Below, in pieces: positions 41,090 to 61,346 of a stretch of DNA of 64,000 bases (position 1 is its first letter; every line of letters begins with the position of its first letter). The notes beneath the pieces are model-generated. The model saw only the letters and a list, made by a program, of their open reading frames with translations. It did no database searches and was not told the origin of the DNA. The position numbers were made by a program, and so were the translations under genes. Source of the DNA: Eledone cirrhosa (Eukaryota); the NCBI GenBank assembly GCA_964016885.1, contig OZ024742.1:125860001-125924000 (forward strand), in the 5' to 3' direction.

Positions 41090-41419
41090 TATACCTTTCT
41101 GTCAGATGATTGAACGTTTGAAAGTGTATACTTTCTTTATGCATATTAACGGCTGAGCAGCGCTGAAAATTATGTGTGTTGGATTCTTATAAAATTCCAG
41201 TAATAATAAGGAACTGATTATACAGAGCGGTTGCCGGTCCAGCAGAAATTGAAAATTAGAATTGGTGCTCTGAAATAGCGATATATATATATGAATTTAT
41301 ATATACTGTATTTTGCAATACACTGTATGCTTAATTAAAAGCATTTTGAAGACCATACGCTATTGTTTTAAAGTAGCGACAACGTCTCTTACTTAAATTT
41401 TCAGTAAACAAGGGGAGAT

Positions 41420-41466
41420 AAGCTGACAGAGCTCTGTTTCGTACATTTTGGTACTTATCAAAGCTC
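41420..41466 (-). ncRNA. Type I hammerhead, U3-A8 core variant
   Basis: GAGCT-TTGATAA-GTACcaaaatGTAC-GAAA-CAGAGCTCTG-TC-AGCTT; all three stems pair; GUC site. Confidence 0.8.
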
Positions 41467-41871
41467 AATACTCTCCCTGTTTGCTGAAAATTATGTGTGT
41501 TGGATTCTTATAGAATTCCAGTAATAATCAGGAACTGATTATACAGAGCGGTCGCCGGTCCAGCAGAAATTGAAAATTAGAATTAGTGCTCTGAAATAGC
41601 GATATATATATATATATGAATGTATATATACTGTATTTTGCAATACACTGTATGCTTAATTAAAAGCATTTTGAAGACCATACGCTATTGTTTTAAAGTA
41701 GCGACAATGTCGCTTACTTAATATATTCATATATATATCGCTATTTCAGAGCACCAATTCTAATTTTCAATTTCTGCTGGACCGGCTGCCGCTCTGTATA
41801 ATCAGTTCCTGATTATTACTGGAATTCTATAAGAATCCAACACATAATTTTCAGCAAACAGGGAAAGTTGT

Positions 41872-41918
41872 GAGCTTTGATAAGTACCAAAAAGTACGAA
41901 ACAGAGCTCTATCAGCTT
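41872..41918 (+). ncRNA. Type I hammerhead, U3-A8 core variant (inverted copy)
   Basis: Same as 41420-41466 with one stem III mismatch. Confidence 0.7.
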
Positions 41919-42226
41919 ATCTCCCCTTGTTTGCTGAAAATTTAAGTAAGCGACATTGTCGCTACTTTAAAACAAAGCGTAAGGTCTTCAAAATGCTTTT
42001 AATTAAGCATACAGTCTATTGCAAAATACACTATCTATACATTCATATATATATATATATATATATATATATATACAAACACACGCACGCACGCACACAT
42101 ACATGCATACATACATACATTCATACATACATACATACATACATACATACATACATACATACATACATACATACATACATACATACATATAAATATATAT
42201 ATATATATATAAGTTTTAATATAGAT

Positions 42227-42279
42227 GAGATTCTACAGGACTAGAACTGTTTCATTCTTTAGAAATCATCAGGAATCCC
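42227..42279 (-). ncRNA. Type I hammerhead (left arm of perfect palindrome)
   Basis: Exact reverse complement of 42286-42338. Confidence 0.82.
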
Positions 42280-42285
42280 TGATCA

Positions 42286-42338
42286 GGGATTCCTGATGAT
42301 TTCTAAAGAATGAAACAGTTCTAGTCCTGTAGAATCTC
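42286..42338 (+). ncRNA. Type I hammerhead (right arm of perfect palindrome)
   Basis: GGGATTC-CTGATGA-tTTCTaaAGAAt-GAAA-CAG...CTG-TA-GAATCTC; predicted cleavage after 42331. Confidence 0.82.
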
Positions 42339-42649
42339 ATCTATATTAAAACTTTTATACTCTGCAATGTATTGAGTACCTTACTTACTGTGGTTACCTC
42401 CGATTCAACCCGGAATAACGTACTATATATATATATATATATATATATATATATATATATATATATATATATATATATATACATATATAAATAAATATAC
42501 ACGAGTGAGTATGATTGTGTATAGAAGATTATATTAATAAAAGGAATTCCAACTTTGTCTCATTTACTCGTTTTATTTACAATCCTTTAAAATGTATAAT
42601 GGTATTAGAATAAAATAGTACGGTAGAATATTAAATGTTAAGTGTTAAT

Positions 42650-42688
42650 TGAACAAGTACTTTCATGCTTTCGCAATCTTCAGGTTCA
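42650..42688 (-). ncRNA. Minimal type I hammerhead
   Basis: Reverse complement of 43414-43452. Confidence 0.82.
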
Positions 42689-57304: not shown

Positions 57305-57709
57305 TATATATTCTTAATCTGCTCTGCCGTGGTGTATAGTATTACTAGATGTTTTACTACCTAGTCTACATTTATATTATGATAATAGGGGTTTCTGAAA
57401 GGAAACACAATTTCAGTATAAGTTTCCCCTAAGGATGTAATTTGTACAGTATTGAAATTTCACAATAAGCTGCTATATATTGTAAAAGATGTCGTAAGCA
57501 CTACAAAAACGCTGCAAGTCTTACGTTGCCATAACCACCATATGTATGATAGTCTAATATTACAACATGATAGATGATATTATATATATAAGTATATATA
57601 TAAACATATATATTATATACATATATGTGTGTGTGTGTGTGTGTGTGGGTGTGTGTGTGTGGGTGTTGTTATATTTGGGGAGGGTCATATTGTTATAATA
57701 TTGCCAGAA

Positions 57710-58160
57710 ATAATAATGATTCCTAGTATAGGCACAAGGCCAGTAATTTGGGGTAGGAGAAAGTCGATTAAATCGACCCCAGTACATTACTGGTGCTTTA
57801 TTTTATCGACTCCGTAAGGATGAAAGACAAAGTTAACCTCGACGGGATTTGAACTCAGAACGTAACGCGCCATAACTCTATGCTGTAAAGCATGGTGTCT
57901 GAGGGCCTACCGATACTGACAATCCACCACCAGAAATAATAATGGTTTCTTATATAGGCACAAGGCCAGCAATTTGGGGGAGGAGAAAGTCGATTAAATC
58001 GACCCCAGTGCATGACTGGTACTTTATTTTTTCGACCCCGTAAGGATGAAAAGCAAAGTTAACCTCGGCGGGATTTGAAGTCAGATCATAAAGGGGCGTA
58101 ACTCTATGCTGCAAAGCATGGCGTCTGACCCTCTACCGATACTCCCAATCCACCGCCCTA
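57710..58160 (-). mobile_element. Two tandem copies of the tRNA-derived SINE
   Basis: Complete head-core-tail units at ~57710-57930 and ~57935-58160; CACCAGAAATAATAAT-like direct repeats at the boundaries. Confidence 0.85.
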
Positions 58161-59020
58161 CCACCAGAAATAATAATAAAATACAAACACTGTTTCCTTT
58201 GGTATTCGCTTCTGTATCTTTTATATCTCTATAGTTAATTTATCTGGCAATCAATGTTAATCATTGCTTGACCAACGGTTAAATAAATATATATATAGTT
58301 TCAAAGTTCTTTCGTCACACACTTATTACATCATCAGTGGTACTTTTTTGTAATGTTATCTATTTGTCATGTTATCTTTTTTGTAATGGTACTATATCGT
58401 AATGTTTATATATATATATATATATATATATATATGAAAGACGTAAAATAAGAAAATTATAAAAATTAACTTACTTACTAAAATTTCACTCCAACTAATT
58501 AGTTTCTGAAAAGGAATAAACATAGTTTCCGAAGAAACGTACGGAGAAGCCTTTCGTCATCAGGGAAGTCTATTCTCAGCTAAGTTTCCAGGCAATGCGT
58601 GGACACAGGTAACTTATACAAAAATAATTCAGTGGATGGAAAAAAGCAAAGCGTGGACTAAGTTCCAAGCCTCGGTGGCAAATTCAAAAGAATCACATCG
58701 AGGTTAATCAGTGAGGAGTGTTTTGTTAAGAAGACAGCAGCCGAACCGTTACTATATTATTTTGTCGAGCCAAATTTGGCCAAAACTACTACTATAGTTC
58801 GTAGTAACGGTTCGGCTGCTGTCTTCTTAACAAAACACTCCTCACTGATTAACCTCGATGTCACGTGATTGATTCTTTTGAATTTGCCACCGACGCAGTA
58901 GGCAGTGATTTTTTCAATGGCTTGGAACTTAGTCCACGCTTTGCTTTTTTCCATCCACTGAATTATTTTTGTATAAGTTACCTGTGTCCACGCATTGCGT
59001 GTAAACTTAGCTGAGAATAG

Positions 59021-59100
59021 ACTTCCCTGATGACGAAAGGCTTCTCCGTACGTTTCTTCGGAAACTGTTTATTCCCTTTCAGAAACTAATTAGTTGGAGT
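59021..59100 (+). ncRNA. Hammerhead-like motif with extended stem II (mirror copy 58488-58569, minus)
   Basis: ACTTCC-CTGATGA-cGAAAGG...CCTTTCa-GAAA-CTAATTAG-TT-GGAGT. Confidence 0.55.
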
Positions 59101-59958
59101 GAAATTTTAGTAAGTAAGTTAATTTTTATAATTTTCTTATTTTATGTCTTTCATATTATTGTTCTGCATCCCCATGCATTGAACCACAAAGTTACTAAGA
59201 CAAAACCTATATATTTGCTGGCATAGGTATGCATCTGTATATATATGTTAGTAGATATACTAATTCTTCATATATATATATATATATATATATATATATA
59301 CACATATATATATATATATATATATATATGTATACGTACATACATATATGTATACAGACGTACAGTAGTATGTATATATATATATATACATACATGCATA
59401 TATATATATATATATGTACGTATGGATTTACTGAGCATTTATTATAATGCTCGGTTTGTTTGCAAACAAACATCCCGAATTACGCCGTACAGTGCAACCA
59501 TCGTCGCCTTTTTGTTCAACACTGACACAGGAACAATGTACTAGTTTCAAGCTTATTAGCTATCGTCTCACCGTATACCTTGCCAGATGATTGAACGTCT
59601 GAAAGTATATACTTTCCTTATGCATATTAACGACTGAGTAGCCTAATTTGCATATCGAGTTAGTTAATCGGCCGGGCGCACCGAAAACGATAGATGGAAA
59701 AAATGAAACGAAATTTCATTTCTCACTCTTAGTACGGCTGTTACTTAAATATAAGTATGTATACGTACATACATATATGTATACAGACGTACAGTAGTGT
59801 GTATATATATACATACATGCACACATATATATATATGTACGTATGGATTTACCGAACATTTATTATAATGCTCGGTTTGTTTGTAAACAAACATCCCGAA
59901 TTAAGCCGTACAGTGTTTAGCAACCATCGTTGCCCTTTGTTCAACACTGACAAAGGAA

Positions 59959-59999
59959 CGCTGTACTAGTTTCAAGCTTATTAGCTATCGTCAGCACCG
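59959..59999 (-). ncRNA. Minimal type I hammerhead in ~425 bp tandem unit
   Basis: Same family as 41049-41089; a core-mutated copy lies at 59534-59573. Confidence 0.75.
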
Positions 60000-60529
60000 T
60001 ATAGCTTCCTGCCAGATGATTGAAAGTCTGAAAGTATATACTTTCCTTATGCATATTAACGGCTGAGCAGCCTAATTTGCATATCGAGTGAGTTAATTGG
60101 CAGGGCACACGGAAAACGATAAATGGAAAAAATGAAACGAAATTTCATTTCTCACTCTTAGTACGGCTGTTACTTACATACATGCACACATATATATACA
60201 AACGTATACAAATCGAGCATTATAATAAATGCTCGGTAAATCCATACGTACATATATATATATATGTGTGCATGTATGTATATATATATACATACTACTG
60301 TACGTCTGTATACATATATGTATGTACGTATACATACTTATATTTAAGTAACAGCCGTACTAAGAGTGAGAAATGAAATTTCGTTTCATTTTTTCATTTT
60401 TTCCATTTATCGTTTTCGGTGCGCCCGGCCGATTAACTCATTCGATATGCAAATTAGGCTACTCAGCCATTAATATGCATAAGGAAAGTATATACTTTTA
60501 GACGTTCAATCATCTGGCAGGAAGGTATA

Positions 60530-60570
60530 CGGTGCTGACGATAGCTAATAAGCATGAAACTAGTACATCG
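60530..60570 (+). ncRNA. Minimal type I hammerhead (inverted unit)
   Basis: CGGTG-CTGACGA-TAGCTAATAAGCAT-GAAA-CTAG-TA-CATCG. Confidence 0.78.
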
Positions 60571-61346
60571 TTCCTTTGTCAGTGTTGAACAAAAGGGCAA
60601 CGATGGTTGCTAAACACTGTACGGCTTAATTCGGGATGTTTGTTTACAAACAAACCGAGCATTATAATAAATGCTCGGTAAATCCATACGTACATATATA
60701 TATGTGTGCATGTATGTATATATATACATACTACTGTACGTCTGTATACATATATGTATGTACGTATACATACTTATATTTAAGTAGCAGCCGTACTAAG
60801 AGTGAGAAATGAAATTTCGTTTCATTTTTTCCATTTATATATATATATATATATATATATATATATATATATATATATATATATATATATATATGAAAAT
60901 ATCAGGATATATAGCAAGGTTCAACACACGCTATAATATCGGAAATCTTTACAGAGCATATATATATTATATACTATGGTCAAGGGAAGACTAGAAATAA
61001 AGGTGGTGTAATTGCAGTATAATAACGTATAACACCTTCCATATCCAAATCGGGGGAAAAAAAAACAAGATAAAATATTTTCCAACATGCATTGATTACT
61101 CCTAAGATACGACACTCGTGAGATATTACATGTCATATCACCCTTTATCTCATTCTCTATCTTTCTCCGTAAACCTCTCTCTTTCTCTCTCTCTTTCTCT
61201 CTCTCTCTCTCTCTCTCTCTCTCCCACTCTCTTTCTCTCTCTCTCTCTCTCTATATATATATATATATATATATATATAACAAAGGAATTGTGGTAAGGA
61301 ACAAGATGGACCATAACGCACCAGAGTACTCAATACTTAGGGTAGT

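Follow-up and report, generated by a model that had tools for sequence, protein, structure and literature searches.

Within a window of 64,000 nucleotides from Eledone cirrhosa (assembly GCA_964016885.1, contig OZ024742.1, positions 125,860,001 to 125,924,000 of the forward strand; positions below are counted from the first letter of this window), six pairs of inverted arms bearing hammerhead ribozyme motifs are very probably insertion scars of Penelope-like elements (PLEs). Their layout is that of the published PLE insertion unit, with a 5'-truncated copy, an adjoining inverted copy, a tail on one side only and a (TA)n target. Three marks of an endonuclease-positive PLE unit were found, namely a sense-strand type I hammerhead in the terminal repeat, a head-to-head inverted 5'-truncated copy and a tail at one end. 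The Penelope origin and the inverted head-to-head arms, both put forward in an original prediction made from the sequence alone, are supported, and both are already described in the portions of three papers compared here (PMC8557442, PMC3846280, PMC4209133). As for the way in which such units arise, the anatomy leads us to hold, with moderate confidence, that both cut strands of the (TA)n target would have primed the same element RNA at two different fixed sites.

Arms, hammerheads and outer ends of the six pairs

The inverted arms were delimited by self-BLAST of the masked window and by arm-to-arm alignment. All six pairs are present where they had been predicted (Table 1), and the identity between arms is 93-100%: pair 1, 41290-41610/41730-42047 (302/318 aligned bases identical); pair 2, 42212-42353, a perfect 142-nt palindrome (71/71); pair 3, 42530-42915/43189-43570 (368/382 identical); pair 4, 49982-50214/50215-50447 (216/233 identical); pair 5, 58432-58754/58802-59156 (317/321 identical plus 3 gaps); and pair 6, 59742-60180/60341-60786 (422/437 identical). 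They had been counted as six independent cases, which holds for them as sequence families; however, a pair-6-family copy is fused to pair 1, and a single TA tract serves both pairs 2 and 3, as another serves pair 4 and the unit starting at 50500. Identity is higher between the two arms of pair 6 (216/223) than between them and that copy at 41 kb (203/224 and 207/227). At 41161/41162, the two different hammerhead tandem families are blunt-fused in the same orientation, which could result from a template jump between RNAs.

A type I hammerhead core with GAAA was found in 12/12 named arms, on the minus strand in the left arm and on the plus strand in the right arm, exactly in the predicted orientation. 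A strict type I descriptor was passed by half of them (6/12: 1L, 2L, 2R, 3L, 3R and 4R, with L and R for left and right arms), while stem I, II or III is damaged in 1R, 4L, 5L, 5R, 6L and 6R. Applied to the whole window, this descriptor retrieved 9 motifs, compared with a mean of 0.07 (maximum 1) in 30 shuffles. The motifs share a short stem I, a mostly palindromic stem III and an unpaired base opening stem II, and the core of pair 1 is of the U3-A8 type; a descriptor without the unpaired stem II base and without the U3-A8 variant misses most of the claimed hammerheads. With the Rfam models, pair 1 matched Hammerhead_HH9 at E 0.1-0.12, below the gathering score. The scan of pairs 2-4 gave no hammerhead match (pairs 5-6 were not scanned on their own), nor did the best 150 of the 288 matches of the whole-window scan, which are dominated by microRNA models on simple repeats. 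The microRNA matches over the palindromes were rejected, as they score below gathering and mirror the hairpin shape only.

One spacer had been said to retain the C-terminal remnant of a GIY-YIG nuclease. This was confirmed for pair 3, in which 42917-43033 (plus strand) encodes a 38-aa remnant aligning with the C-terminus of the GIY-YIG open reading frame (ORF) of the window (13/34 identical, pairwise E 4e-5). Since the remnant lies on the plus strand, the right arm belongs to the longer copy and its hammerhead, downstream of the ORF remnant in the same orientation, lies in the sense 3' untranslated region (UTR). A short PLE-like C-terminal peptide at 51040-51122 appears to resemble the pair-3 remnant. 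The pairs other than pair 3 are non-coding, and an RT (reverse transcriptase) is linked to none of the six. These short spacer peptides were not recovered by tblastn with the PLE ORFs of the window.

At the outer ends, 6/12 arms join a TA tract directly (an interrupted tract for 3R) and 5/12 do so after 48-113 nt, so that the claim that these ends lie at or near (TA)n holds for 11/12; it fails at 41162, which is fused to the pair-6-family copy. Because a (TA)5+ run is met within 5 nt outward at 0.4-0.5% of unmasked positions and within 120 nt at 12%, the direct joins are far beyond chance, whereas nearness alone carries little weight. Every pair is asymmetric, one arm joining (TA)n at an internal site and its partner extending 48-130 nt further. 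Before (TA)n is reached, this extension measures ~64-70 nt in pair 2, ~48 nt in pair 3, 88-89 nt in pair 4, 112-113 nt in pair 5 and ~55-60 nt in pair 6; that of pair 1 (~130 nt) ends in the pair-6-family copy rather than in (TA)n. A target-site duplication cannot be discerned in the pairs, because both flanks are (TA)n.

To distinguish element from target DNA in the extension, reads from four runs (three samples, none from the individual of the window) were placed on the long copy of pair 5 (58755-59270), and the best-supported rows were considered. Depth was unbroken from the arm through 59157-59268. Among the rows listed, 13 contigs (X3) depart at 59156 into an AT run and 21 contigs (X1) at 59268 into a TA run, and plus-mate molecules end at 59265 in 442/567 cases and minus-mate ones at 59158 in 210/664 (X12). 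In the pair-5 family the 3' end recurs at two positions separated by 112 nt, with (TA)n following each, and the extension is element sequence. As family copies also cover the 47-nt spacer of pair 5, this spacer is the 5' extension of the long copy. No contig or read across pair 5's own junction was present among the rows listed for the four runs. In the reads, many family copies carry a different stem II region at 59023-59068, and loose-end consensus rows suggest an altered GAAA motif.

Proposed priming of both (TA)n strands and its alternatives

Seven more head-to-head units were found in the window: 50500-51243, whose arms 50560-50679/51124-51243 are 100% identical, 12497-13302, three of a family called FA and two of a family called FB. 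All events were chosen by hand within this single window, and three inverted pairs of ambiguous polarity or family (51393-51500, 63253-63456 and 11618-12071) were excluded from all counts. Where a hammerhead or an ORF fixes the polarity, inverted or divergent pairs of one family are head-to-head in 11/11 cases (the six pairs, 50500-51243, 12497-13302 and the three FA events). An extension is present on exactly one side in 10/10 non-tandem events, and on both or neither side in none. If each strand had its own RNA and its own independent start site, at most half of the units would be asymmetric, and the probability of the one-sided pattern would be <=0.5^10, or <=0.5^6 for the six events with proven tails. 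The tail is element-derived in pair 5, FA and FB, and presumed to be so in pairs 2, 3 and 4. In FA, the tail-less arm ends at position 98 of the family and the tailed arm at 184 in 3/3 paired events (183 in the minus arm of 10626-10853). A hammerhead with a U4A core change is common to three FA copies.

The arms are nested or level in 6/10 non-tandem events. In the other four, neither arm contains the other (25221-25381, 35625-35818, 61281-61461 and, provisionally since its tail is not proven element sequence, pair 3), and in two events one arm is the tail alone (25221-25381 and 61281-61461). In the first of these the breakpoints abut, 98|98, at 25295; in the second a 9-nt gap is left at 61348, the tail-only arm stopping short of the other arm's end. 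Finally, the internal site shares at least 4 nt with (TA)n in 5/10 families, compared with 6.5% under the null (binomial p 2e-4), FB being scored 0 in this count as its anchor is off register.

The preferred route of one-RNA twin priming would run as follows. Each pair would represent two 5'-truncated, opposite copies of the hammerhead-bearing 3' end of a PLE, made in one insertion. The GIY-YIG nuclease would cut (TA)n on both strands; one 3'-OH would then prime at the distal site, which is the tail end, and the other at the internal site, often through 3-5 nt of TA microhomology. The distal cDNA could halt at the internal primer, leaving a tail-only arm, or could displace the internal cDNA and stop before, at or past the end of that cDNA, giving offset, perfect-palindrome or nested arms. 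The two cDNA ends would be joined end to end and filled in, with the hammerheads as passengers of the pseudo-long terminal repeat (pLTR). All four predicted outcomes (tail-only, offset, perfect palindrome and nested) are seen in the window. Moreover, if both strands prime on one RNA, two different start sites are required. We suggest, more tentatively, that the PLE tail and the inverted pLTR may be one phenomenon, programmed twin priming, in which each head-to-head unit has exactly one tail. If so, tail-only arms would mark where the trailing cDNA met the leading one, the missing mechanism for PLE inverted structures would be at hand and (TA)n-rich genomes would be its natural record. No literature proposing twin priming for PLEs was found, in a search outside which lay most subscription papers, including older Penelope work, and supplements.

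Several points weigh against this route. The internal site shares only 0-1 nt with (TA)n in 4/10 families, and initiation without homology is reported in the part of PMC11167929 covered. The tails of pairs 2, 3, 4 and 50500-51243 are only presumed element sequence; FB has neither hammerhead nor ORF and FA only a variant hammerhead, both being assigned to PLEs by architecture; and the left end of pair 1 is not at (TA)n. Among the listed reads, opposite-strand joints are few (3 rows, comprising 1 contig and 3+3 reads, direction not given), none of them being pair 5's own junction, and 2 further two-read joint rows are of a kind not stated. The sample is small and hand-picked from one 64-kb window, and the route is read from anatomy alone. 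Lastly, arms that overlap, as they do in 8/10 non-tandem events, need the RNA:cDNA hybrid to be displaced if there is only one RNA, and two RNAs account for the overlap more easily.

This last point brings in the best-surviving alternative, in which a dimeric PLE protein would hold two RNAs, each target strand priming on its own, and the two cDNAs would be joined head to head. No strand displacement would be needed for overlapping arms, and the Anolis PLE protein, described in the covered part of PMC11167929, is a predicted dimer that extends both strands. However, nothing in this scheme enforces exactly one tail per event (10/10), the same start sites were seen on both strands in PMC11167929, and a tail arm that stops exactly at the start of the other arm (98|98, 25295) is left without reason. 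We consider two-RNA priming rather unlikely.

One-RNA twin priming must also be set against fold-back or self-priming, by which one cDNA, or an antisense template as in PMC3846280, would fold on a short palindrome and copy itself. Self-priming is inferred from junction palindromes in the covered part of that paper, and pairs 2 and 4, free of spacer and with self-complementary 6-mer centres, could arise this way; the inner arm ends of pair 3 are likewise a palindromic 6-mer, and the 6/10 nested or level events would be compatible with it. A copy-back arm must nevertheless sit within the first arm, which is not the case for 25221-25381, 35625-35818, 61281-61461 and provisionally pair 3. Fold-back is impossible for such non-nested units, which need two priming events on element RNA, and it appears improbable overall. 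The original prediction had proposed priming on both (TA)n strands or fold-back synthesis by the PLE machinery; the former fits the anatomy and PMC11167929, while the latter does not stand as a general route.

Later rearrangement, by which ordinary copies would have been inverted or duplicated at self-complementary (TA)n through recombination or replication template switching, is very improbable. Inverted duplications centred on (TA)n and unrelated to hammerheads do exist in the window (25478-25579, 46696-46905 and 48288-48367), and the right arm of pair 1 extends exactly from one internal TA run to the next. On the other hand, TA lies outside the pairs and not at their centre, no TA run is present at the inner junctions of the tail-only events, and the same two end points recur at unrelated loci and in the reads. 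The (TA)n-centred duplications, including another at ~55066-55201, show the reverse geometry and may reflect template switching at (TA)n or assembly error. Assembly or amplification chimeras are the least credible explanation: the arms of pair 2 and of 50560-50679/51124-51243 are 100% identical and no listed record spans pair 5's own junction, but the arms differ by 1-7% in five of the six pairs, four also with indels, both end types are present in independent samples and the structure has been published from other animals.

The 5' ends of the arms were considered separately. Hammerhead cleavage as the rule that sets them was rejected, as it matches 12736 alone and none of the six pairs, whose arms hold whole motifs. 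The 5' ends of four FA copies (47960-47963, 25291-25294, 35746 and 10792) fall at FA 21-24, the upstream edge of hammerhead stem I, and both arms of pair 2 start 3 nt upstream of stem I (42283); these positions may be an RNA start or a strong stop of the reverse transcriptase (RT).

(TA)n tracts, predicted duplexes and other features of the window

Merged (TA)8+ tracts adjoin an element end in 21/51 cases (29 ends, from a hand-made list), and the proposed link between PLEs and (TA)n abundance is only an association. Three plain PLE remnants have (TA)n at their truncated 5' ends (33700, 39171 and 55084); as priming does not take place there, this is in keeping with an insertion that split an existing tract rather than with synthesis of the tract. 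For read-through transcripts of pairs 2-5, folding predicts base pairing of 82-97%, by which the hammerheads would be hidden within the hairpin. Were the region transcribed, the units would give near-perfect RNA duplexes of 70-440 bp, candidates for editing or small-RNA processing. At ~7427-7520 (plus strand), an ATG-started hydrophobic frame of 31 codons was seen by eye, running up to a possible splice donor; were it a host first exon, the hairpins could be intronic.

The window is animal DNA with a G+C content of 35%, dense in simple repeats, and contains many copies resembling short interspersed nuclear elements (SINEs) and several PLE remnants. The 25 longest of its 919 repeat pairs are TA arrays only. 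A long interspersed nuclear element at 16525-21771 (minus strand) is apparently intact, with two ORFs encoding a 1153-aa endonuclease-RT and a 594-aa ORF1, and a DDE transposase remnant lies at 56136-56903. The PLE remnants 37159-39171 and 53974-55013 are similar to each other, the latter giving a weak GIY-YIG match. Two more similar hammerheads with long stem II loops, at 30840-30904 (plus strand) and 35871-35941 (minus strand), each reach (TA)n ~40 nt downstream, and the second sits at the 3' end of a PLE-like remnant (35835-39171). Related degenerate hammerheads lie on the minus strand at 50715-50760 and 58300-58345, the latter abutting the TA tract left of pair 5.

As for the inverted repeats left out of the counts, that at 63253-63456 is old (70% identity) and lies directly upstream of a broken ORF (63481-64000), which we take, from its motifs, to resemble a PLE N-terminus; that at 51393-51500 begins at a TA run and has hammerhead core words in permuted order; and that at 11618-12071 (88%) begins at a (TG)n tract. 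SINE-like copies at 22182-23015 and 9491-10085 show an inverted duplication of adjacent DNA without TA flanks (282 bp at 97% in the former), and the outer ends of five SINE-like inverted pairs have no TA run.

Table 1. Arms, copies and head-to-head events of the window
Feature	Positions	Strand	Description
Pair 1, left arm	41162..41729	-	321-bp tandem, ~1.8 units; hammerhead 41419-41467 with U3-A8 core; pair-6-family copy, not (TA)n, fused to outer end
Pair 1, right arm	41730..42044	+	one unit, bounded by its own TA run and the following one; at 41877 a hammerhead core with damaged stem III; outer end directly at (TA)n 42045-42075
Partial tandem of pair-6 family, fused to pair 1	40599..41161	-	hammerhead 41050-41088; far end not at (TA)n
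Pair 2, left arm (tail-less)	42212..42282	-	hammerhead 42227-42279; joins (TA)n
Pair 2, right arm	42283..42423	+	arm as far as 42353, with hammerhead 42286-42338; (TA)n at 42424 reached through an extension of ~64-70 nt, element origin presumed
Pair 3, left (short) arm	42483..42915	-	arm 42530-42915, hammerhead 42650-42688; ~48 nt extension to (TA)n, element origin presumed
Pair 3, long copy	42916..43565	+	GIY-YIG C-terminal remnant 42917-43033, 3' UTR, arm 43189-43565, hammerhead 43414-43452; joins interrupted TA tract 43566-43793
Pair 4, left arm	49894..50214	-	arm 49982-50214, with weakened stem I around the hammerhead core at 50092; (TA)n reached through an extension of 88-89 nt, element origin presumed
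Pair 4, right arm	50215..50440	+	hammerhead 50332-50386; joins (TA)n 50441-50499; no spacer, centre self-complementary
Pair 5, left arm (tail-less)	58436..58754	-	hammerhead core at 58563 with imperfect stems I/III; outer end directly at (TA)n 58407-58435
Pair 5, long copy	58755..59268	+	spacer as 47-nt 5' extension; arm 58802-59156 with core at 59027; tail of 112 nt (59157-59268), element-derived and followed by (TA)n
Pair 6, left arm	59320..60207	-	429-bp tandem, two units, the outer one without its hammerhead core (lost); core at 59994; joins TA tract
Pair 6, right arm	60208..60835	+	hammerhead ~60530-60570 (stem II weakened); exceeds left arm by ~55-60 nt of the unit; outer end directly at (TA)n 60836-60894
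PLE ORF remnant, 5'-truncated, plain insertion	32244-33700	-	RT and C-terminal GIY-YIG; RVT_1 and PF01541 matches; (TA)n at truncated end; reference for pair-3 peptide
Seventh event	50500..51243		long minus copy with PLE-like C-terminal peptide, degenerate hammerhead ~50715-50760 and 56-nt extension; plus arm 120 nt, 100% identical, no hammerhead; (TA)n both sides
FA event, non-overlapping arms	25221..25381		FA 21-98 in minus arm; tail alone (FA 98-184) in plus arm; flanked on either side by (TA)n
FA event, offset arms	35625..35818		minus arm FA 62-184 (with tail), plus arm FA 24-98
FA event, nested arms	10626..10853		minus arm FA 24-183 (with tail), plus arm FA 44-98
FA solo copy with tail	47960..48123	+	type I hammerhead 47963-48013 with all stems complete and a U4A change in the core; joins (TA)n
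FB event	55651..55791		minus arm 30 nt, tail-less; tail of plus arm 77 nt; no hammerhead found and polarity therefore assumed
FB event, non-overlapping arms	61281..61461		tail alone (FB 42-108) in minus arm; FB 32 at the end of plus arm; flanked on either side by (TA)n
Tandem-type head-to-head event	12497..13302		5' end of minus arm (12736) = cleavage position (~13226) of degenerate hammerhead ~13175-13232 in plus arm; sole such case found

Comparison with known retroelements

The closest published units are those of Craig et al. 2021 (PMC8557442), the cited papers being compared in the portions covered here. They are alike in 5' truncation, partial tandems, an inverted 5'-truncated copy at the 5' end and a tail at one end, as well as in the pLTR hammerhead, the microsatellite targets including (TA)n and the lack of discernible target-site duplications. 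Their tails measure 30-40 bp compared with 48-113 nt here and are ascribed to nuclease resolution, the passages covered are without tail-only or offset arms, and the mechanism of PLE inverted structures is stated there as unresolved. (TA)n is named in that paper for Naiads, which are hammerhead-less, whereas the ORF remnants here are of a C-terminal nuclease. A Naiad, with an N-terminal endonuclease and no canonical hammerhead, was rejected, as in pair 3 the nuclease C-terminus immediately precedes the 3' UTR and a hammerhead is present.

The hammerheads themselves resemble those of Cervera and De la Pena 2014 (PMC4209133) in their type I cores, short stem I, palindromic stem III, unpaired stem II start and U3-A8 variant. 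In Schistosoma, 'dual min-HHRs' (minimal hammerhead ribozymes) are reported there ~100-700 bp apart on opposite strands; unlike the pairs described here, the part of the paper covered describes neither (TA)n ends nor tails. The Penelope elements of Adineta vaga (Arkhipova et al. 2013, PMC3846280) are alike in their head-to-head inverted repeats, junction palindromes and optional tail on one pLTR, but the self-priming on an antisense template proposed for them is a misfit, as sole route, for the non-nested arms found here.

In vitro, the Anolis Poseidon element (Frangieh et al. 2024, PMC11167929) is alike in AT-rich cleavage and in two internal RT start sites bounding a tail; the PLE protein cuts and extends both target strands, and hammerhead cleavage is not needed. 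Its start sites are not homologous to the target, whereas 5/10 internal sites here share at least 4 nt with (TA)n, and the text covered does not connect its two sites with inverted units. This system makes it possible to test the mechanism in vitro.

The abutting breakpoints 98|98 and the 9-nt gap are, by analogy, of the L1 twin-priming geometry. In L1 twin priming, there is hardly any overlap between the arms, and the internal site varies. Unlike L1, the internal site here is fixed per family and the arms mostly overlap. As described in the part of PMC9148063 covered, both overhangs prime one RNA in L1, one distally and one internally, giving an inversion with abutting breakpoints (Ostertag and Kazazian 2001). 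Pairs 1 and 6 are in turn like non-LTR retrozymes (bioRxiv 10.64898/2026.07.22.740005, part covered), in that their tandem units, of 321 and 429 bp, are non-coding and carry a type I hammerhead. An active non-LTR retrozyme, with at least 2 consecutive units bearing complete hammerheads, was rejected for both, since the left array of pair 1 has one hammerhead and the outer unit of pair 6 has lost its core.

The known PLE layout accounts for many palindromes and hammerhead matches in a (TA)n-rich animal genome, so that no new element class is needed. The one-tail rule and the tail-only arms would provide a countable genomic signature separating one-RNA twin priming from two-RNA priming and fold-back.

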